Part shown: piece by piece, positions 1,832 through 40,385 of the stretch
How the letters are laid out: each line of letters begins with the position of its first letter
Position numbering within the stretch: position 1 is the stretch's first letter
DNA from: a virus
Virus record (IMG/VR): IMGVR_UViG_3300045972_000132
Span: 35,408-99,407 of that record
Length of the DNA: 64,000 nt
Strand: one strand, 5' to 3'
The notes under the pieces: generated by a model
Database searches by the model: none
What the model was told of the DNA's origin: nothing
Seen by the model: the letters and a program-made list of their open reading frames with translations, nothing else
Position numbers and translations under genes: made by a program

Positions 1832-2603
1832 TGCAGTTGACATTGCAGTACGAGCAATTGATGACATGAAGTCTTCTACCGGGCTATTTAAACTCCCTGG
1901 TGGATACTTGGATGAAAAGGGCATCTTACACGATGAGATTCAAATCAGAGAAATGACCGGTGCTGAGGAGGACATCCTAGCTGGTAAGACGGATTCTATC
2001 ACTCTGAAGCTAAACGCTATTATGGCTGGATGTCTAGTGAGGATCGGTTCCATCACAGATCCTGGTGAAATTGCCAAGGTTATCAATCTTTTGCCCTCAG
2101 GGGATCGTATTTATCTTCTAGTTCTGATTCGTATGGTTACACTAGGGGACGACTTTGCCTTCGATGAGAAATGCCCTGAGTGTGGCGACAAGGCTACCTA
2201 CAATATTTTTCTAAGCAGCTTGGAAGTTACACCAATGAAGGACAAGAACAAGCGCGAGTTTGAATTCACTGCACCTTCTGGGAAGAAAATCATCATAAAG
2301 ACCCTCCTGGGAAAAGATGAGGGCTTGGCATCTAAATACGGTGAAGAGTATCCAAATGACGTTGTAAGCGCCATCATGCTTGCTAGAGTGGTCTCAATTG
2401 ACGGTGTTCCTGCCACCGTAGAGTCCCTTAAAAAATTGGGCTGGAAGGATCGGTCCTTTGCCCGCAAGTCCATTGAATCAATTGATGGAGGGGTCGAGCT
2501 TGGGGTTACGAATGAATGCAAGAAGTGCAATTTTGAATTCACCAAGGACTTACAGATTGGAAGCCAAAGTTTTTTCTTCCCTTCGGAGACCCTGAACTCC
2601 TAG
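1824..2603 (+). CDS. Tail assembly chaperone / T4 gp26-like hub assembly protein
   Basis: IREMTGAEEDIL, GDRIYLLVLIR, CPEC and CKKC; directly upstream of the tape measure gene. Confidence 0.8.
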   Translation: MTNAVDIAVRAIDDMKSSTGLFKLPGGYLDEKGILHDEIQIREMTGAEEDILAGKTDSITLKLNAIMAGCLVRIGSITDPGEIAKVINLLPSGDRIYLLVLIRMVTLGDDFAFDEKCPECGDKATYNIFLSSLEVTPMKDKNKREFEFTAPSGKKIIIKTLLGKDEGLASKYGEEYPNDVVSAIMLARVVSIDGVPATVESLKKLGWKDRSFARKSIESIDGGVELGVTNECKKCNFEFTKDLQIGSQSFFFPSETLNS

Positions 2604-2746
2604 AGGCTCAGTATTTTAGCTTCCTTGAGTACTGGCACATAAGTTACACGGAGTTTTTAAATATCCCGTGTAGTCTCCGATTTAGATTGCTAACTAGAAA
2701 GGACGAACTGGAACGTAGGCGTCAAGAAGCATATAATAGGAAGTAA
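2570..2746 (+). CDS. -1 frameshift extension of the tail assembly chaperone (gpGT-like)
   Basis: Slippery T TTT TTC at 2570-2576; the -1 frame is open for 58 codons (FLPFGDPELLEAQYFSFLEYWHISYTEFLNIPCSLRFRLL...NRK*) and fills the gap to the tape measure gene. Confidence 0.8.
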   Translation, partial: FFLPFGDPELLEAQYFSFLEYWHISYTEFLNIPCSLRFRLLTRKDELERRRQEAYNRK

Positions 2747-2764
2747 TTCTAAAATGGAGTCTTG

Positions 2765-4906
2765 ATGGCACTTCCAGGGCTAGGTCTAGCATATTTATTC
2801 GTTGGTAAGGACGCTGGTCTTGGTAAAGCCCAAGACGAGGCTACCAGCGGTTTCGAAAAACTTGGAAAGTATGTATCTGGGGTTGCCTCCAGAATGGGTG
2901 AACTTGCGACCAATACTGGTCAGCTAATGACTGCCTTCGAAGCTCGTAATTTTGATGCAAAGAATTCTATTTACGGTGTCTTTGCAGGAATGGGCCAAAC
3001 AGCCGCTTCGTCCGCTAAGGCTAGCGATCAACTAATCAGCATGGCTCGCAAACTGAACACGATGGATAAAGTTCCCGAAATGGCGGAAGCCTTTAGAGAG
3101 CTTACTAATATAAAATTCAATGGTGGCGGCGCAAAAGACGTAAACTCTATGGTTGAGCAGCTTACTCGCCTATCTGGGGTCACGGGGGCATCAATCACGG
3201 GTTTATCTAGGTCACTTGTCGCGCTAACAAACCAGAAAGTATCTGCCGGGGGTATCACAGATATTCTTGATTCCGTTATTAGTATGGGTAAAGAGTTTGG
3301 TACTGGAGACACTGCGGTTAAGAATCTGGAGCGCATAGTCGCCGCTGTTAGAGATGCTACTCAGAAAACCGGATCAGATCCACAAAAGTTTATAAAAGAA
3401 ACCTCCGGTCTTGCATCCATCATCGACACATTTTCCCCCGGTAAAGGAGCAGACGCCGCTATTGGGATTATGAGCAAAACTCAATCAGAATACGATACTT
3501 TTCAAAAAATGTTTACTGGGGATGCTACTCAATTAGACAAGAGTACTGTATTAGGTGCGCTCTTATTGGGTAGCGCGGACAAAGGATTCGGACTATTTAA
3601 GAGTTCTCCTCTGAAATGGATTCAAGAGGTAACTAAGGGTCTAAGGGATCTCGGTCCCGCAAGTACTGTATTCAAAAAATTTAAAAAGGATTTAACTACA
3701 AGTGGTCAAGGTGATTTGTGGAGAGTAATTGAAAGTGAATTAGAACAGGCAGGAAATATTGAAAAAGCTATAAAAGCTAGTGAGAACGCAAAAGGCGCTT
3801 CAGGTAAAATGGCTGCGGAACATAGAAACAAGTACAAGCCTGACGAACAGATAGCCTTAAATACGGATTCTGCATGGACTAAATTTAGAGGCATGTTTGG
3901 TGACAAGCAATCTAAATATGTTAAAGATTCCACCAAGGTATTCAATGATTTTTTTAAAACCCTTCAGGAGGGTGCTAAAACCAATCCAGACTTAAAAACC
4001 TTATCAGATACAGTATCTAATCTAGATAAATTCGGTATGAAGGGATTTTTTGGAGAGTCTACTAGGTCAAAATTTGGTGCCTTGGGTCAGGTTCTGGATA
4101 AATTAGGCCCAAGCTTAGACTCCCTGTCTAAGTATGGTTTCAAACTAGAGAACTTATTCAGCCCATCCGGATTACTCCAAACAGGGTTACAGGCCCTCGC
4201 CGGGGACTTTGCTGCTAACTTTATGGAGTCCGGCAGCTTCTCTAAAGCCATGTCAGCAACCATAGAAGATGTTAAGAAATTCTACGCCAAAGTTAAATAC
4301 TATGGCAAGAAGGTCTGGGGCTTCCTAAAAACTTATTGGGACGCTCACGGAGAGGAAATAAAGAAGGAGATCAGCGAAATATGGAAAGAACTCAGCGAGA
4401 CCTTCGGACCCACAGTTTCCGGATGGGGAGAATCCTTCAAGAAAACATTGAATGAATTCTGGAAAGAATACAGACCGGCATTCGTAAAACTAGGTACCGC
4501 GATAGGTGAGGGAATTCAAGAGGGTCTAAAAAAGATGCTTCCCAAATGGATGCAAAAGGAAGTAAGTGCCTCTGGTGGTGGTGGGGACATAGTTCCCCTA
4601 TTCGATATCAACGATTACCTGAAACGAAAGCACGAATCCGAAGGCCCCCTGCTCCCACCATCACCAACAAAACACGAAGACGCTGCATCTACTGCGAGTA
4701 CTATGGCTGCTTTGAAAAAAGCACAGTCGAACCCCATCTTTGACTTTCCTAGTGGTCCGTCGTCCAATGCAAACTCCTCTTCTGTATCTGTAGTGGATAA
4801 ATTGGACAAACTAATTGATTCTAATAATGCTCTCGCTAACGCCTTCAAGACTTGGCTTCCACCATCTAAAAGACCCGTGTCCTCCGCAGGATCTCCGAGT
4901 AAATAA
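2765..4906 (+). CDS. Tape measure protein
   Basis: About 713 aa, helical and A/G/K-rich with periodic Trp/Phe in the C-terminal half; position after the chaperone. Confidence 0.8.
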   Translation: MALPGLGLAYLFVGKDAGLGKAQDEATSGFEKLGKYVSGVASRMGELATNTGQLMTAFEARNFDAKNSIYGVFAGMGQTAASSAKASDQLISMARKLNTMDKVPEMAEAFRELTNIKFNGGGAKDVNSMVEQLTRLSGVTGASITGLSRSLVALTNQKVSAGGITDILDSVISMGKEFGTGDTAVKNLERIVAAVRDATQKTGSDPQKFIKETSGLASIIDTFSPGKGADAAIGIMSKTQSEYDTFQKMFTGDATQLDKSTVLGALLLGSADKGFGLFKSSPLKWIQEVTKGLRDLGPASTVFKKFKKDLTTSGQGDLWRVIESELEQAGNIEKAIKASENAKGASGKMAAEHRNKYKPDEQIALNTDSAWTKFRGMFGDKQSKYVKDSTKVFNDFFKTLQEGAKTNPDLKTLSDTVSNLDKFGMKGFFGESTRSKFGALGQVLDKLGPSLDSLSKYGFKLENLFSPSGLLQTGLQALAGDFAANFMESGSFSKAMSATIEDVKKFYAKVKYYGKKVWGFLKTYWDAHGEEIKKEISEIWKELSETFGPTVSGWGESFKKTLNEFWKEYRPAFVKLGTAIGEGIQEGLKKMLPKWMQKEVSASGGGGDIVPLFDINDYLKRKHESEGPLLPPSPTKHEDAASTASTMAALKKAQSNPIFDFPSGPSSNANSSSVSVVDKLDKLIDSNNALANAFKTWLPPSKRPVSSAGSPSK

Positions 4907-28598: not shown

Positions 28599-28610
28599 TC
28601 AGGAGAAACT

Positions 28611-29018
28611 ATGTCAATTCGCGTCCGCTACAAATTCATTCCTTCAATTTCATCTGATGCCAACGAAGCCAGAGATCTTGGGAATCCGCTGATTGAAGTC
28701 TACAGCGATGCCTTGGTAGACGGCGGCTCATTCAGGGCTACTGTTCCAGCCTTGGCGACCAATTTACAAATCGCTATGCCGGGAATCGCTAACGTTAGCT
28801 TCCTAGCCATTAGAGCTACCTCAACCGATTCCTCACTAGCTCCTGTAACGGTTAACTTGACCAAAAACTCCCCCTCAGGTGAAGTTATTGCCTTGGTTCC
28901 ATTCGGAGGTAAAGAGTCACTTCTTGTGCTAACCACCTCCGGTATCACTAGCATCTATGCTAGCAACCCTAGCACCACTACCTCAATGGACTTAACCTTC
29001 TACGTCGCCGGTAACTAA
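28611..29018 (+). CDS. Hypothetical virion-associated protein
   Basis: SD aggag; beta-rich; follows the fibre gene. Confidence 0.55.
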   Translation: MSIRVRYKFIPSISSDANEARDLGNPLIEVYSDALVDGGSFRATVPALATNLQIAMPGIANVSFLAIRATSTDSSLAPVTVNLTKNSPSGEVIALVPFGGKESLLVLTTSGITSIYASNPSTTTSMDLTFYVAGN

Positions 29019-29368
29019 TGACTAAGCTAGTTCTAAGACCATGTAGGGTTAGAAGTACCTTCTTCAGCACCGAGGAAGAGGATCCCGTTACTTATGATTT
29101 AAAACAGCTTAGAAACGAATTAACCAATACTTACGATAGGTTAGAGTCTCACAAGATTTCCATGCTCCAACAGGATGCCTATATTGGTAGTTCTCAGACC
29201 GCGACGGGAAATAAAATCTTCGTACTGATAAATCCAGATAAATCTGGTAATATTGCATGGGTATTAGCAAAAGACCCCTCTTTCAGGGACCGTATTTTAA
29301 AAGTTTATAAAGTACAGTCCATTGATTGGGGTTCACAGATTGAAGAACAAAACTTCCTAGGAGCTTGA
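29018..29368 (+). CDS. Hypothetical protein
   Basis: Start overlaps the previous stop. Confidence 0.55.
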   Translation: MTKLVLRPCRVRSTFFSTEEEDPVTYDLKQLRNELTNTYDRLESHKISMLQQDAYIGSSQTATGNKIFVLINPDKSGNIAWVLAKDPSFRDRILKVYKVQSIDWGSQIEEQNFLGA

Positions 29369-29372
29369 AATT

Positions 29373-29738
29373 ATGTCTAAACTACTTGAATCCATTGATG
29401 CCGTGGGGGAATTGTTCAACCTCTCAGAGGGTCACGAAAAGAAACACAACCCCTTCCGTCACCACTCCAAACTAGGCAATAAGACTCCACGCTCCAGAAA
29501 CGGCGCTGATGAAGTCGAAAAGTGGGAATGCACCAAGAAGGGTGCATATCTTCAGGTCTGCAAGGGCGTAGGCCCCGGTAATGAAGGTCGTACCAAGATC
29601 GTTCATGTTGACCCCTCTTGGAAGAAGCAGTACAACGCTGAATATAAGAAAGGAATGGCGAGTGGAAAATATGTTCCAGCAGTCAGAAGTGGCGGAACTA
29701 AAAAAGCAAAGAAAGCCAAGCTTTCAAGCCACGAATAG
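29373..29738 (+). CDS. Basic protein (possible internal head protein); its 3' end appears to be supplied by the GIY-YIG element
   Basis: SD aggag; MSKLLESI leader; 25 residues near the C-terminus are duplicated at 30435-30509. Confidence 0.7.
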   Translation: MSKLLESIDAVGELFNLSEGHEKKHNPFRHHSKLGNKTPRSRNGADEVEKWECTKKGAYLQVCKGVGPGNEGRTKIVHVDPSWKKQYNAEYKKGMASGKYVPAVRSGGTKKAKKAKLSSHE

Positions 29739-30434
29739 ATTTCTGATTTACGCGCTAGTAGATCCTACAGATCCGTCTAAATTCCGATATGTAGGTCAAA
29801 GCCGCCAAGGAATGAAGCGTCCCGCTATTCATTGCATGGAATCTACGCTAAGGAACGATAAAAATCTTCATAAAACAAACTGGATTAGATCAGTTCTAGC
29901 CAAGGGTGTAAAGCCGGATATCATAGTTCTAGACACACTACCTGACCGAACTGAAGAGTATTCTAAGAACGAAATCATGCTCTGGCTAAATGAGTCTGAA
30001 ACTAGATTTATTAAAAAATACAGATTAGAGGGGCATCCTCTGACAAACCTAACAGACGGCGGATCTGGTCCGGTTGGTTTTAAAATGCCAGAAGACGCTA
30101 AGAGAAGGATATCTAAAACCCTGAAGGGTAGAGTATTTTCAGACTCCCATAAAGAGTTGATTTCTATTAGAAAATCTGGAGTCCCTCAGTCGGATGAACA
30201 TAAGTTAGCCTTATCTAAAGTACGAGAGGGTAGAATAATTTCAGAATCAACTAAAGCTAAAATTTCAGCTAGTCATAAGGGTAAAGTTCTCCCAGAAGAA
30301 ACCAAACGCAGAATATCTATCGCAAAGAAAGGTATTCCTAAAACAGAAGACCAAATGAAAAAAATGTGGGATACTAGGAGAGCAAAGTATGGTCCCCTTG
30401 GGAGGTCTATAAAATGACTAAAACAAAACAAACA
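29652..30434 (+). mobile_element. Homing endonuclease insertion carrying a recoded copy of the target gene's 3' end
   Basis: Bounded by a protein-level direct duplication GMASGKYVPAVRSGGTKKAKKAKLS. Confidence 0.75.
29671..30417 (+). CDS. GIY-YIG homing endonuclease with NUMOD3-like repeats
   Basis: IYALVDP...RYVGQS, catalytic E region ESETRFI, LTNLTDGG, repeats HKELIS/TKAKISASHKG/TKRRIS; likely start ATG 29671. Confidence 0.9.
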   Translation: MFQQSEVAELKKQRKPSFQATNRFLIYALVDPTDPSKFRYVGQSRQGMKRPAIHCMESTLRNDKNLHKTNWIRSVLAKGVKPDIIVLDTLPDRTEEYSKNEIMLWLNESETRFIKKYRLEGHPLTNLTDGGSGPVGFKMPEDAKRRISKTLKGRVFSDSHKELISIRKSGVPQSDEHKLALSKVREGRIISESTKAKISASHKGKVLPEETKRRISIAKKGIPKTEDQMKKMWDTRRAKYGPLGRSIK

Positions 30435-30521
30435 GGCATGGCTTCTGGCAAATACGTTCCCGCCGTTCGTTCGGGTGGAACCAAGAAGGCTAAGAAGGCC
30501 AAGCTCTCAAAGAAGGATTAA
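30414..30521 (+). pseudogene. Displaced original 3' end of ORF 29373, readable as a 35-aa minigene
   Basis: MTKTKQT-GMASGKYVPAVRSGGTKKAKKAKLSKKD*; SD ggagg and ATGA overlap with the endonuclease stop. Confidence 0.75.
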
Positions 30522-30526
30522 CCTAA

Positions 30527-31291
30527 GTGGCCGGTCTTTCATCACTAGCATCTTCCATGAATATGACAGTCAACTCCAAGAGAGTTGGCTTTAATATTCT
30601 CACGCTCGATGAGAAAGACAATGTAATTAGCTATAAGAGTCTTCAATACTTTCCAGAATCCCTTAGGGACTCCAAATCAGTAGACTATTCTAGAAAGGCA
30701 ATGCCGGGAGGCTCCCTACCGATCTACCAGTGGGTTTCCGGGGGCGCTAGAACTCTTTCCCTGACTGCCATTCTTTCTTGTGATAATGACCTATCCGATA
30801 TTAATACGGGTGTAGTGAATTCCTTTATGAAGTTAGAAGATTTAAATAGTAAGGGACTTCAGCGGAATAATATAGACATCCGAAGTGCGGTGGTCTGGCT
30901 TCGACAACATCTATACCCTCGGTACTCTCAAAATCAACAAACACCCTCTGGGTACCAAGTAAGTGCCCCTAGAAAGGTATTTTTAAATATACCCAACTCT
31001 GGAATTGGTTTTGCGGGTATGGGATCCCTCTCTAGACCTGACTCGGTTCTATGTATTATGACTCAATGTGAAGTGGACTATAAGAGCTTTTTCCCTAACG
31101 GACTACCTAGGCTAGCCAGTATCCAGCTTTCTTTTGAAGAAGTAGCTCAGTATCAGGGGCTAATTACTTTCCCCGCAGCTTCTAAGGGCTTGGATGCACT
31201 TTATGAGCAGAGAGGTTTATATAGTGATGCGCCCGATAACTATAGAAGATATGAAGTTGGATCCAAAGGTACTATTGTTGGCGGTGGTTAA
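30527..31291 (+). CDS. Tail tube initiator-like protein (Afp7/Pvc7-type)
   Basis: LQYFPESLRDSKSVDY....PGGSLPIYQWVSGGARTLSL ... F.PNGLPRLA.I.LSFEE. Confidence 0.7.
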   Translation: MAGLSSLASSMNMTVNSKRVGFNILTLDEKDNVISYKSLQYFPESLRDSKSVDYSRKAMPGGSLPIYQWVSGGARTLSLTAILSCDNDLSDINTGVVNSFMKLEDLNSKGLQRNNIDIRSAVVWLRQHLYPRYSQNQQTPSGYQVSAPRKVFLNIPNSGIGFAGMGSLSRPDSVLCIMTQCEVDYKSFFPNGLPRLASIQLSFEEVAQYQGLITFPAASKGLDALYEQRGLYSDAPDNYRRYEVGSKGTIVGGG

Positions 31292-31294
31292 CTA

Positions 31295-31465
31295 ATGAAA
31301 TCTACCCAAGTAAGTGAACCTGCCACAAGCGACCTGATGATCCTAGCTCTACCCATATCTAGTTTTAAAAAGCTACATGCCCTCTCTAGCGTGAATGACA
31401 AAACCGTAGCACAATTGTTAACTGAGGCAATAGATGCCTATATTGGCAATTTAAAAAAGGAGTAA
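31295..31465 (+). CDS. Small ribbon-helix-helix/CopG-like protein (56 aa, not in the ORF track)
   Basis: Hand translation MKSTQVSEPATSDLMILALPISSFKKLHALSSVNDKTVAQLLTEAIDAYIGNLKKE. Confidence 0.6.
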   Translation: MKSTQVSEPATSDLMILALPISSFKKLHALSSVNDKTVAQLLTEAIDAYIGNLKKE

Positions 31466-31468
31466 CCC

Positions 31469-31822
31469 ATGAACTTAGACGCAATGTTAACCGGACAGAA
31501 CGGAGTGCTAGCTGGTGCCATTATTGGAATTGTAATGGCACTAAAGCGTTCTGTTCCATGGCTCACTGAGTCCAAGGCAGGCCAACGCCTACTCCCCATC
31601 GTCCCCCTTATTCTCGGGGCAATCGGAGGTGGCTTTGGTAGTGTTATTGTAGATCCCGTAACTATGGCTAACAAGATCATCGCCGGTATTATGGTTGGCG
31701 GCGCTGCCAGCCTAGGTTTCAAAATGCTCAAGACCACCGTATTTGGTCACGGGCTAGATGATGTGGACCCTGAAGTAGAAACCCCTCACGAGGCCCCTAA
31801 GCCTCCTAAGGCGGAAGGATAA
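31469..31822 (+). CDS. Holin-like membrane protein
   Basis: Three hydrophobic segments and a charged C-terminal tail; SD aaggag. Confidence 0.6.
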   Translation: MNLDAMLTGQNGVLAGAIIGIVMALKRSVPWLTESKAGQRLLPIVPLILGAIGGGFGSVIVDPVTMANKIIAGIMVGGAASLGFKMLKTTVFGHGLDDVDPEVETPHEAPKPPKAEG

Positions 31823-31830
31823 ATTAGACC

Positions 31831-32301
31831 ATGGCACTTCCTGCTAACTGGCCCCCAAAGGTTTCTTCCGGCCTCCGCTCGATTCGGGCGTATGTCACTG
31901 CAACCTCTACAGTCAACTTCTCTGATAATGCGTACATGTTTGCCGATCTCGTCGCGGGAACGGCAAACACCTTTACCCCGACCCCGGTAGTTTCTCCTAG
32001 CCAGCAGACGATGACCGGCCCAAGCGGTGAAGGTACTAACGCCAATACTGCACTTGGTAAAACCCCCAATGGTACTGGCGCAAATGATGCAAATGATCAG
32101 AAACCCCAAACTTGGGCATTTGGAATTCGAATCTGCAATGACGGGACCACTACTGACAAGATCGACTACTCCTTCGACGCTGTTAACGTCCATGGTCAGC
32201 TAAAGGCAGGAGAGACTGTCGTATATCTTCACCGTCATGAATCCGGCATCGCTATCCGCGCCTCAAGCGGAACGCCTTCATTCCGCATCGAAGCATGGTA
32301 G
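31831..32301 (+). CDS. Hypothetical virion-associated protein
   Basis: SD aagga; beta-rich C-terminus ending FRIEAW. Confidence 0.6.
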   Translation: MALPANWPPKVSSGLRSIRAYVTATSTVNFSDNAYMFADLVAGTANTFTPTPVVSPSQQTMTGPSGEGTNANTALGKTPNGTGANDANDQKPQTWAFGIRICNDGTTTDKIDYSFDAVNVHGQLKAGETVVYLHRHESGIAIRASSGTPSFRIEAW

Positions 32302-32314
32302 GATATCAGACTAC

Positions 32315-33055
32315 ATGGTAGCAGTTGATATAGTTCGCCTAATAGGTCTATACCAAAGCGGTAAATCTACTAGAGTAGTAGGTTCTGAGTTAGGTGTAGA
32401 CCACGTTACCGTTTTGAACATTTTAAAGAAAACAGGTACTACTATACGTTCTAGAGTAATGCCCAGAAAAGTATCTGTATCTGAGGTAGTAGAAGCTCAC
32501 TATAGTGGGCTTACTGGTGGAGAAATTGCCACAAAGCTTGGTGTTGATAAGGCTCTAGTCTATGCAAGACTTAAGGAGGCCAATGTAACTCCTTGGTCAT
32601 TTATAGAAAAGGATTGGGTATCTCTAGCAGTAGAGCTTTACGAGGCAGGTATGGACTGTCCTGTAATTTCAGACTTCATAGGCCCATCTACGGCTTTCAT
32701 ATACTCAGAACTAAAGAAGTCTGGTGTTAAATTCAGATCTAGTAAGGCATGTGGTAGGAATTTCACAAAAGGTTATGCTAAATCCTTCAATTCGGAATTG
32801 AAGTTAAAAATACGCACCAGAGACAACTTTGTCTGTAAATCCTGTGGTCTTACTGAAGCTGAGAACAAGGAACGAATTAAGATTCAGGGTCGTGGACAAC
32901 CTCTTACGATTCACCATATAGATTTTGATAAAATGAATTCTTCCGAAGACAACTTGATCACTCTTTGCATTAGATGCAATGCACAAGCCAACACGGATCG
33001 TGAACACTTCAAAACACTGTATTCAGAAAAGGTCAGAGAAATTCTGAACAGCTAG
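32315..33055 (+). CDS. HNH homing endonuclease with N-terminal helix-turn-helix repeats
   Basis: Three HTH-like repeats; IRTRDNFVCKSCG...LTIHHIDFDK.N....NLITLCIRCN. Confidence 0.9.
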   Translation: MVAVDIVRLIGLYQSGKSTRVVGSELGVDHVTVLNILKKTGTTIRSRVMPRKVSVSEVVEAHYSGLTGGEIATKLGVDKALVYARLKEANVTPWSFIEKDWVSLAVELYEAGMDCPVISDFIGPSTAFIYSELKKSGVKFRSSKACGRNFTKGYAKSFNSELKLKIRTRDNFVCKSCGLTEAENKERIKIQGRGQPLTIHHIDFDKMNSSEDNLITLCIRCNAQANTDREHFKTLYSEKVREILNS

Positions 33056-33075
33056 TCAGGGTCGAAGCATGGTGA
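33056..33075 (+). repeat. Duplicated 3' end of ORF 31831 (RVEAW*)
   Basis: TCGAAGCATGGT identical at 32288-32299 and 33062-33073. Confidence 0.75.
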
Positions 33076-33101
33076 CGAATTTACAATAAAGTTCAGAGTT
33101 C

Positions 33102-33133
33102 AAAGCCCCTCTGGTTGATTCCAGAGGGGCTTT
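33102..33133 (+). terminator. Intrinsic (possibly bidirectional) terminator
   Basis: AAAGCCCCTCTGG-ttgatt-CCAGAGGGGCTTT. Confidence 0.8.
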
Positions 33134-33149
33134 CTGCTATATAGGCTAC

Positions 33150-33644
33150 ATGAGCGAAACTCCTGTAGTCCCCGCGACCCCTACCCATGCAGGCCCCACC
33201 TACGCTACTACCAAGTGGACTTCCGCTGGTGGGGTTGTCCTTAAGGGCTTGTCACGACAAGCAATTGACTACGTTTGGGTAATTAAGCCCTCCGGTAGCT
33301 ACGGCAGCAGTTGGTCCCTTCCAAAGGGTAGAAAAGACGAAGGAAGCACCCTAGAAGAGACCGCGACCAGAGAAGTCTTGGAAGAATCTGGGCTAATGGC
33401 TAAATTCATTCCCAATGGCTATCTAGGCTCCCACGAGGGATCCAGCAGCACTACCCATTATTACCTCATGGTCCAAACTACTGGAAACCCCTTGGATCAT
33501 GACTTTGAAACCGAAAAGGTTCTACTCCTTAAGATCGATGACGCCATTGCTCTCATGGAGAAAGACTATAATCGTCGGGACGAGAGGGTCCTCAAGCTGG
33601 CTAAAGAGAAAATCGACCTTTTAAAAAGCAATCTAGGCTATTGA
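33150..33644 (+). CDS. NUDIX hydrolase
   Basis: SAGGVV and Nudix box WSLPKGRKDEGSTLEETATREVLEESG. Confidence 0.92.
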   Translation: MSETPVVPATPTHAGPTYATTKWTSAGGVVLKGLSRQAIDYVWVIKPSGSYGSSWSLPKGRKDEGSTLEETATREVLEESGLMAKFIPNGYLGSHEGSSSTTHYYLMVQTTGNPLDHDFETEKVLLLKIDDAIALMEKDYNRRDERVLKLAKEKIDLLKSNLGY

Positions 33645-35040: not shown

Positions 35041-36138
35041 ATGAAACTACTAGAATCAATCAAAAACATCAGGGCTGAAATCGAAACCCAGCTTGTAGAA
35101 AGGGAAGACTCTGAAAACGTTCAGCGCAGAATCGACTCGCGGGATGCTAAGAGATTAGCTAAGGGTGGGCATAAGCAAGCTGCGGGCCGAAAGTTTGCTG
35201 GAGCGGCAGTTAGTGCCCAATCTAAGGCTATGGGTGCAAAGGGTACCAAAAAGTCTAGACTAGAGAAACTCTCTACTGGTTATATGCGTAGAGCAAATTG
35301 GACTGCAAACCCTGACGAGGCCCACGCACGTTACAAGGAATTTGCCGATCACGCCTCAACCTACGAAGGTCACGCAGCTAATCTAAACGATAGAGTCGAT
35401 GCCGAGCACGCCAAGGGCATGGACAAGAACCTGAGTCAGATCCACGACACTCATGGTCACCTAATGGACAAACACTTCCTCGCCCACCAAGCGCACTTGT
35501 TAGCGGCGCACCACGCTCGTCCAAATAGCCCAGAAGAGAAAATGCACTTATCTGACGCCGAGACCTCACTAAAGGCTCATCACAAGGCAAAGAAGGACCA
35601 AGCGGACACCGAAGATGAGATCAACAAAGATATCCATGCCCACATGGGTCCAGGAGTTGAGGCTCAAAAAGCCAAAGAGCGTAAGCTAAAGCAACATGTT
35701 AAATCTTCCCCTGACGCAAGCACCAAGACTCCTGAGGGAGCAGAAGCCGATAAGGTTGTAGATGCTACAACTCATATTGGTGGAATTGCTAAGGAAAAGG
35801 CCAAGGCTGCGACTGCCGGTGCCGTACATAATCTGGTTAAGGCTGACCAGTACAAGATGAACAAGGGTAATTCTAACCGCGAGAAACGCCTAGCCCAGCT
35901 AGACGCTAAGACTCCAGAAGGAAAGCCCAAACTACACAGACTCCCAGATGTCTCCACTGGTCCCGCAAGCCAAGGCAACAAGGCTCTCGATATGACCAAG
36001 CACAACCGCTTCTTCTCCCCGGAGCAGGTTAAGGCTCGTGCAGCAAGAAAAGCAAAGACTGCCGCAGAACACGACACCATCAAGAAAGGTCATGACACTA
36101 TCAAGCACTCCGATGTTAAGGATGGTGTGGTGGTCTAA
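35041..36138 (+). CDS. Lys/His/Ala-rich protein, probable internal head protein
   Basis: Leader MKLLESIKNIRAEIETQLVE; highly charged and His-rich. Confidence 0.6.
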   Translation: MKLLESIKNIRAEIETQLVEREDSENVQRRIDSRDAKRLAKGGHKQAAGRKFAGAAVSAQSKAMGAKGTKKSRLEKLSTGYMRRANWTANPDEAHARYKEFADHASTYEGHAANLNDRVDAEHAKGMDKNLSQIHDTHGHLMDKHFLAHQAHLLAAHHARPNSPEEKMHLSDAETSLKAHHKAKKDQADTEDEINKDIHAHMGPGVEAQKAKERKLKQHVKSSPDASTKTPEGAEADKVVDATTHIGGIAKEKAKAATAGAVHNLVKADQYKMNKGNSNREKRLAQLDAKTPEGKPKLHRLPDVSTGPASQGNKALDMTKHNRFFSPEQVKARAARKAKTAAEHDTIKKGHDTIKHSDVKDGVVV

Positions 36139-39896: not shown

Positions 39897-40385
39897 ATGA
39901 GTACAGACCGCTTTTTAGATAAAAAGATAGCTAACCGAAAACAGGGGGTGGGTCCCAACGGACTCCCCACTTGTCGGTGGTGTCGCGGAGAGGTAATTCC
40001 TCCCAAGCGGACGTTCTGTTCTCAGAAGTGCATTCATGAGTGGCGCATCCGCAGCGATGTGGGGTACGCCAAGATGAACGTCGAAGATCGTGATAAGGGA
40101 ATCTGCGCTTATTGTAAACAAGACTGTACCAGCCAGAAATTACTACTTGATGAAGTCCGCAAAGATGACAGACTCTTATTCCTAAGGGAAATCAAGAAGT
40201 TAGGTCTGAGTGAATCTACTTACGACAAGCGCAAAGTTCTATGGGATCTGGATCACAGAGTCAGAGTCGCGGACGGTGGTGGAAGTGCAAGTTTAGATAA
40301 TTTACAAACTTTGTGCCTCACTTGTCATAAAACCAAAACAGCTTACGAGAACAGCGTTACCAAGAAAGGTAGAAAGCGAAAATGA
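39897..40385 (+). CDS. HNH endonuclease with an N-terminal zinc finger
   Basis: CRWC...FCSQKC; RDKGICAYC; DLDH...ADGGG...LDNLQTLCLTCH. Confidence 0.88.
   Translation: MSTDRFLDKKIANRKQGVGPNGLPTCRWCRGEVIPPKRTFCSQKCIHEWRIRSDVGYAKMNVEDRDKGICAYCKQDCTSQKLLLDEVRKDDRLLFLREIKKLGLSESTYDKRKVLWDLDHRVRVADGGGSASLDNLQTLCLTCHKTKTAYENSVTKKGRKRK

Follow-up and report, generated by a model that had tools for sequence, protein, structure and literature searches.

The locus described here lies in a window of 64,000 nucleotides (positions 35,408 to 99,407 of IMG/VR record IMGVR_UViG_3300045972_000132; coordinates below are those of the window). This record was obtained from a pond metagenome and covers 99 kb of the genome of an uncultured virus. 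An open reading frame (ORF) at 29373-29738 encodes a small basic protein of 121 amino acids (aa). It is followed by an intact, free-standing gene for a GIY-YIG homing endonuclease, in a frame that differs from that of this host gene, and then by a GTG-started gene for a tube-like protein. The end of the host gene is encoded on both sides of the endonuclease gene in two different spellings. The upstream copy, which we term tail A, is in frame with the preceding part of the ORF (the body) and completes it. The downstream copy, termed tail B, is contained in a mini-ORF of 35 codons located between the endonuclease gene and the tube-like gene.

Two spellings of one gene end

The translation of the window contains a 25-residue peptide (GMASGKY...KAKLS) twice, at 29652-29726 in tail A and at 30435-30509 in tail B. 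The two copies differ at 17 of the 25 codons and at 21 of the 75 bases, every change being synonymous. The differences include two switches of serine between the AGY and TCN codon families and one switch of arginine between AGA and CGT, and the longest run of identity between the tails is 8 nucleotides (nt). Beyond the shared peptide the tails part ways, tail A ending in SHE-stop and tail B in KKD-stop. The residues preceding the shared glycine are also unlike (YKK in tail A, KQT in tail B), and comparison of the 3' end of the body with the sequence just upstream of tail B revealed no similarity 5' of this glycine. When the 99-kb record was scanned in all six frames, no further repeat between nearby peptides came close to 25 residues.

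A single random substitution in this stretch is synonymous with a probability of 0.26. The chance of accumulating 21 synonymous changes without any replacement is approximately 4e-13, and the peptide was kept in none of 200,000 simulations. When codons for the peptide are drawn twice, independently, according to the usage of this phage, the two draws differ at a mean of 15.9 codons, compared with the 17 observed, which indicates that the silent divergence of the tails is saturated. The occurrence of an identical peptide on both sides of the endonuclease, with 17 of 25 codons changed, had been noted in the original prediction. Translation and codon comparison confirmed it, and the duplication as such is real.

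An exhaustive HMMER search retrieved 66 relatives of the 121-aa protein, among which P27, C53, C63, K84, Y87, N88 and Y91 are invariant. The closest of them are P0002 (54% identity), P0003, P0004, P0006 and P0038. In all five, the tail motif YK.G.A.G[KR]Y....RSG is joined straight to the body and is followed by a lysine-rich stretch, which shows that the duplicated segment truly belongs to the conserved protein. At 121 aa, the hybrid ORF is of normal length, the relatives having 116-127 aa. As had been proposed, tail A thus restores the interrupted gene, the insertion spot lying within the last 28 codons of the target. The SHE ending of tail A is atypical, the ends of the relatives being Lys/Arg-rich as in KKD, and it coincides with the endonuclease codons located just before the GIY motif. 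Searches of Pfam, PHROGs and the ESM Atlas returned nothing usable on the function of the 121-aa protein, with no family match in Pfam or PHROGs. The core of the family reads H.PF.R..LG..PRG...W.C...Y.Q.C...K....YK..YN..Y.

The frame at 29581-30417 encodes a protein with GIY-YIG and NUMOD3 regions. Pfam NUMOD3 matched the endonuclease at 7.7e-8, past the cut-off, two NUMOD3 repeats were found in the genome search, and PHROG 314, annotated as 'homing endonuclease', matched at 7e-15. The Pfam GIY-YIG model PF01541 did not attain an E value of 0.01 on the window nuclease; homologues at 28-38% identity bear both PF01541 and PF07460. In an alignment with 12 homologues, several of them with PF01541, residues Y27, Y40, R50, H54, E110 and N126 are invariant, and because these GIY-YIG core residues are conserved throughout, the enzyme looks active. 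No second copy of the nuclease was found in the 99-kb record.

Upstream of and near the GIY motif, the only canonical starts are ATG 29671 and GTG 29689, and none occurs between 29689 and the motif. ATG 29671 is the likely start of the nuclease, with GTG 29689 as an alternative. Homology begins at about residue 22, counting from ATG 29671, and additional alternative starts are provided by ATGs that precede it in the same frame, of which the first is at 29581. Since both near starts fall within tail A, this stretch would be dual-coding whichever of the two serves. Such dual coding had been predicted, together with its origin in a change of TAC to TAT, and the codons of the two tails agree with both: TAT-G at 29669-29673 of tail A makes the candidate ATG 29671 in the endonuclease frame, and tail B has TAC-G.

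A stem of 5 base pairs (UGGAA/UUCCA) at 29663-29680 holds the candidate ATG 29671 in its loop and recalls the start-sequestering hairpins of I-TevI and mobE. The fold around the nuclease start was no better than that of shuffled sequences (z = -1.0), and the hairpin was not significant. A promoter and terminator scan also remained at the level of shuffles and revealed no nuclease-specific unit. The public gene call for the nuclease, P0068 (29836-30417, 193 aa), begins after the GIY and YVG motifs and misses the catalytic N-terminus.

Table 1. Features at the two insertion sites, in window coordinates
Feature	Position	Strand	Evidence
Body of target gene	29373-29651	+	ORF 29373-29738; 66 HMMER relatives; synteny with L002-L007; GC3 0.55
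Tail A (25 shared codons, SHE, stop)	29652-29738	+	In frame with body; overlaps endonuclease start; GC3 0.28
GIY-YIG and NUMOD3 endonuclease gene (likely start)	29671-30417	+	Pfam NUMOD3, PHROG 314, invariant core residues
35-codon mini-ORF containing tail B (30435-30509), then KKD-stop	30414-30521	+	GC3 0.60; stop 5 nt before next start
Tube-like gene, GTG start	30527-31291	+	Weak Pfam CIS_tube match; 40% identity to L002:722-1465
Second target gene, 156 aa, RIEAW-stop at 32284-32301	31831-32301	+	Homologues in L002, L003, L005 and L006
HNH endonuclease with N-terminal HTH domains	32315-33055	+	Pfam HNH 7.8e-5 and HTH matches; PHROG 8446 1.5e-15
Putative displaced remnant, RVEAW-stop	33058-33075	+	12 identical bases with 32288-32299; Arg codon CGC vs AGG

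Synteny and polarity of the two copies

For comparison we used seven loci, reached via the family and the tube-like protein: one metagenome locus (L002), which was the sole locus returned by the metagenome scan and is distant, and six IMG/VR loci (L003-L008). No close relative was found with blastn and tblastn against the phage collection, or with back-translated IMG/VR scans for the 121-aa protein, the nuclease, the tube-like protein and P0002. A word-based protein search returned the query itself only, and a degenerate pattern of the tail motif had no match in viral and genome contigs.

Loci L002-L007 share the gene order orf116, family gene, tube-like gene, with orf135 ahead of orf116 in L003-L007. 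Four of them (L002, L003, L005 and L006) also have an orf156 homologue downstream of the tube-like gene, and L008 matched the tube-like gene alone. None of the seven loci gave a GIY-YIG or HNH match; the nuclease is absent from the loci of all these relatives, none of which is close.

The tube-like gene has homologues in L003-L008 as well as in L002, where the alignment, including the matching N-terminus MAGL, confirms GTG 30527 as its start. The distance from the end of the family gene to the tube-like gene is 6-40 nt in L002-L006. In the window, 5 nt separate the stop of tail B from GTG 30527, and the last codons of tail B supply a Shine-Dalgarno-like AAGGA ahead of this start. The spacing and the synteny together indicate that tail B occupies the place of the native gene end in the relatives. 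We infer that tail B is the displaced native 3' end, still at the ancestral distance from the tube-like gene, in line with the earlier claim that the old tail had been left behind.

The base composition of the four segments points in the same direction. The GC content at third codon positions (GC3) is 0.55 in the body, 0.28 in tail A, 0.32 in the nuclease and 0.60 in tail B. The GC3 of tail A differs from that of the body (Fisher p = 0.024), and the GC3 of tail B differs from that of the nuclease (p = 0.0075). This grouping lends modest support to the view that tail A arrived with the nuclease and that tail B is native.

The ATG of the mini-ORF that contains tail B overlaps the stop codon of the nuclease (ATGA), with a Shine-Dalgarno-like GGGAGG located 8 nt upstream, which is statistically not significant. 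Translation of this mini-ORF might keep the GTG-started tube-like gene coupled. In the protein database, the 35-aa remnant ORF stands as a separate protein, P0025.

The family genes located directly before the tube-like gene are found at L002:197-715, L003:2810-3469, L004:2436-2993, L005:2800-3477 and L006:1926-2468 and 2471-3460, the last two being tandem paralogues. Frequently the family protein carries an additional, fused N-terminal domain of about 90 aa. In L007, the region 2215-3500 between the family gene and the tube-like gene contains two extra ORFs (70 and 336 aa, with no nuclease match), which suggests that this junction is an insertion hotspot for other cargo too.

A proposed cassette carrying its own gene end

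We propose, with a probability of about 0.68, that tail A and the nuclease form a cassette that spreads by double-strand-break repair and brings its own gene end. The mobile unit would comprise the replacement for the last ~28 codons of the target (29652-29738) and the overlapping nuclease gene (to 30417). In a mixed infection, the nuclease would cut an allele lacking the endonuclease, at the join of body and tail or close to it, and the cassette-bearing genome would serve as the template for repair of the break. Of the two crossovers, the left one would lie within the body and the right one in or past the recipient's own tail and the tube-like gene, which is the presumed right-hand homology arm. 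The product would consist of the body, the carried tail, the nuclease, the displaced native tail and the tube-like gene.

Since the host protein would remain full length and the same save for its last three residues, the insertion would cost the phage little. The carried tail would have stayed under protein-level selection in a working gene as its silent sites drifted to saturation, and the displaced tail would have been orphaned from a functional gene only recently, which could explain why neither copy has acquired an amino-acid change. The presumed old target is split and re-spelled, which should prevent self-cleavage. Because identical runs do not exceed 8 bases, the arrangement would also be stable, offering little purchase for recombination that deletes the nuclease. 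Polarity, cleavage site, resistance and homing pathway are predictions from the sequence, and the interpretation given in the original prediction is partly supported overall.

Several observations weigh against this proposal. The evidence for polarity consists of the GC3 of 25 codons and of synteny, with a nearest relative that is 54% identical, and is modest in strength. Dual coding may bias the composition of tail A, because its third positions are the second positions of the nuclease frame. The claim that tail A is mobile and tail B native like the body was modestly supported by the GC3 grouping but not by a full codon-usage likelihood test, which does not separate the copies: the log-likelihood for host versus endonuclease usage is 2.55 for tail A and 5.72 for tail B, both within the host range. 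Saturated silent divergence would be equally expected from recoding for resistance and from transfer of the tail out of a diverged donor phage. With its plausible ribosome-binding site and ATGA overlap, the mini-ORF may be translated and selected itself. Finally, relatives at 54% overall identity match just 15-16 of the 25 tail residues, and 25/25 identity combined with saturated silent divergence appears to need a stronger constraint than the family displays. This oddity would reflect either a very strong local constraint in this clade or selection favouring silent divergence.

The same arrangement could arise with the reverse polarity, tail A being native and tail B having been brought by the nuclease as a passenger from the flank of its donor. 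The codon-usage likelihood allows tail A as the native copy, and the GC3 of neighbouring phage genes (0.37-0.38) is close to that of tail A; it is tail B, however, that fits the unusual GC3 of the body, and tail A that fits the nuclease. We consider this polarity unlikely, as tail B also holds the ancestral 5-nt spacing and the AAGGA for the tube-like gene, as a native end should, and as it is tail A whose atypical SHE coincides with the nuclease frame, KKD resembling the Lys/Arg-rich ends of the relatives. Moreover, it is hard to see where a passenger tail 3' of the nuclease would have come from if the donor was not already split in this very layout.

We regard as slightly less probable still a duplication in place at insertion, either a long target-site duplication or a tandem one, after which both copies were translated, selected and silently diverged. 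The mini-ORF would then encode either a basic peptide with a function of its own or a leader that couples translation of the tube-like gene. This would account for all 21 differences being silent despite one copy seeming orphaned, but coupling would not need the peptide to be conserved, and the GC3 split between the tails is not predicted. The GGGAGG and the ATG that follows it after 8 nt, overlapping the stop of the nuclease, are arranged as in real gene starts of the phage, and the mini-ORF stop lies 5 nt before the GTG-started gene; GGAGG, however, shows no enrichment across the window, and start codons at such a distance are common by chance. Furthermore, saturation that includes two AGY/TCN serine switches would demand a very long residence, whereas free-standing nuclease genes are usually short-lived.

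There is very little probability that the nuclease resides in a self-splicing intron or an intein, or is skipped by ribosomal bypass, with a product that joins the body to tail B. Tail B is intact and GIY-YIG/NUMOD3 enzymes such as I-TevI are often intron-encoded, but an Rfam search of 29200-33300 at E <= 1 found no intron family, neither group I nor group II, its sole match being weak and unrelated (33088-33155). The host frame is continuous through tail A to its own stop at 29738 and yields a protein of normal length. Because of this stop and of the different frame of the nuclease, which excludes an intein, an intron or intein is very unlikely, and the insertion without a splicing element that had been claimed is upheld. 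As for bypass, the 783-nt gap far exceeds the 50-nt gap of T4 gene 60, to our knowledge the only characterised case.

Least likely of all is an assembly artefact in which versions of the tail from two strains became joined. The record does come from a metagenome assembly and a diverged low-depth variant occurs nearby in the same run, but a second, independent assembly of the likely source run covers all of 28600-31300 (2.7 kb) with zero differences at a depth of 12, a run from another study has 77% of the sampled words when an allele without the 783-nt insert tops out at ~71%, and a complete nuclease gene lies between the copies. No insert-skipping junction was present in the contigs examined; the contigs of the second run miss the nuclease, and this result has no bearing on the existence of an empty allele. 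A 151-nt low-depth contig in the likely source run covers 28671-28806 with 18 differences, the 12 listed comprising six C>T (28703-28724) and then six G>A (28735-28755). This contig could stem from a divergent strain in the same sample, or else from an artefact of fold-back or deamination.

A second insertion and comparable systems

An HNH endonuclease gene located 2.6 kb downstream of the GIY-YIG case has a similar layout, with a tail of 5 codons. It is inserted right after the RIEAW-stop ending of a 156-aa gene, and an RVEAW-stop remnant begins two bases past its own stop. The two endings have 12 identical bases in common, a 12-mer that occurs twice in the window compared with 0.00 expected, and the Arg codon is re-spelled between them (CGC and AGG). 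All homologues of the 156-aa gene in the four relatives that carry it end in [VI]EAW-stop, and no HNH match was found in the fetched loci of these syntenic relatives. Two unrelated nuclease families thus bear one insert-and-replace signature within 3.5 kb.

The nearest parallel to the cassette proposed above is found in the mobile endonuclease ORFs (mORFs) of fungal mitochondria, where C-terminal duplications were described for atp6 of Allomyces macrogynus and for atp6, atp9, cox2 and nad3 of Glomus sp. (PMC3630166 and work on Allomyces cited there). The inserted and native C-termini there are as low as 64% identical in nucleotides at >90% protein identity, and transfer with the endonuclease from a diverged donor was inferred (PMC3630166). 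A comparison with fungal 3'-end replacement had also been drawn in the original prediction. In both settings, an endonuclease ORF (LAGLIDADG, or GIY-YIG in atp9) interrupts a conserved gene towards the 3' end of its coding sequence, between two flanking C-terminal copies, the inserted C-terminus restores the gene in frame, and the native one is displaced downstream, with copies low in nucleotide and high in protein identity. The phage locus differs in several respects. The setting is a tailed phage and not an organelle, and the nuclease overlaps the carried tail in another frame without an in-frame fusion. The 25 shared residues are 100% identical, with silent divergence at saturation, and the displaced tail retains a candidate start codon, a putative ribosome-binding site and the spacing for coupling to the gene that follows. 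The key fungal evidence was the match of the native copy to a close relative, whereas the nearest relative here is 54% identical.

Seg and Mob, the free-standing homing endonucleases known from T4-type phages, spread by intronless homing, which follows the same double-strand-break repair route as proposed here. The GIY-YIG gene resembles them in being a free-standing gene of a T4-type phage that is part of an operon and overlaps the gene before it, in its presumed spread by double-strand-break repair with co-conversion of flanks, and in a predicted carrier immunity due to differences in the target sequence. The seg and mob genes of T4 occupy intergenic positions and are not known to duplicate a gene end, whereas the present insertion lies inside a coding sequence and would be offset by a carried replacement end. 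Invasion of coding sequences is known from the mobE insertion that splits nrdA in phage Aeh1 and from T4 mobA and gene 60, which form a bypass cassette. In these cases as well, a compensating device keeps the host gene working, but it consists of the reassembly of split subunits or of a ribosomal hop instead of a duplicated, re-spelled gene end.

Intronless homing by free-standing T4-type endonucleases is among the subjects discussed in PMC10448857. Barth, Dunham and Seed (PMC10055350 / PMC10448857) describe small ORFs beside nuclease genes in phage 'HEG islands' (HEG, homing endonuclease gene) as fragments of neighbouring essential genes and propose them as recombination substrates for later homing. 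An incomplete literature search returned no phage account of a carried, silently re-spelled replacement end. The architecture is thus known from fungal mitochondria and essentially undocumented for phages in the literature searched, and here, though ordinary in its proposed mechanism, it is cleanly preserved and doubled in one operon.

We suggest tentatively, at somewhat less than even odds, that carrying a silently re-spelled replacement end is how free-standing homing endonucleases of phages more generally gain access to conserved genes with neither intron nor intein, the displaced end being kept as a right-hand homology arm and perhaps as a translated coupling leader. If so, these endonucleases would enter coding sequences directly with no need for a ribozyme or intein, and a wider range of sites could be occupied. 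The resulting hybrid genes, whose ends and bodies have different histories, would bear on phage phylogenies, gene calling and pangenomes, and the locus would provide a natural example of a cut-resistant, recombination-proof recoded allele. With two nuclease families side by side it forms a compact test system, although the phage is uncultured.

A third HNH gene in the window, at 39897-40385, has no flank duplication. It encodes a protein of 162 aa with CxxC pairs, which may be packaging-associated and not a homing enzyme.

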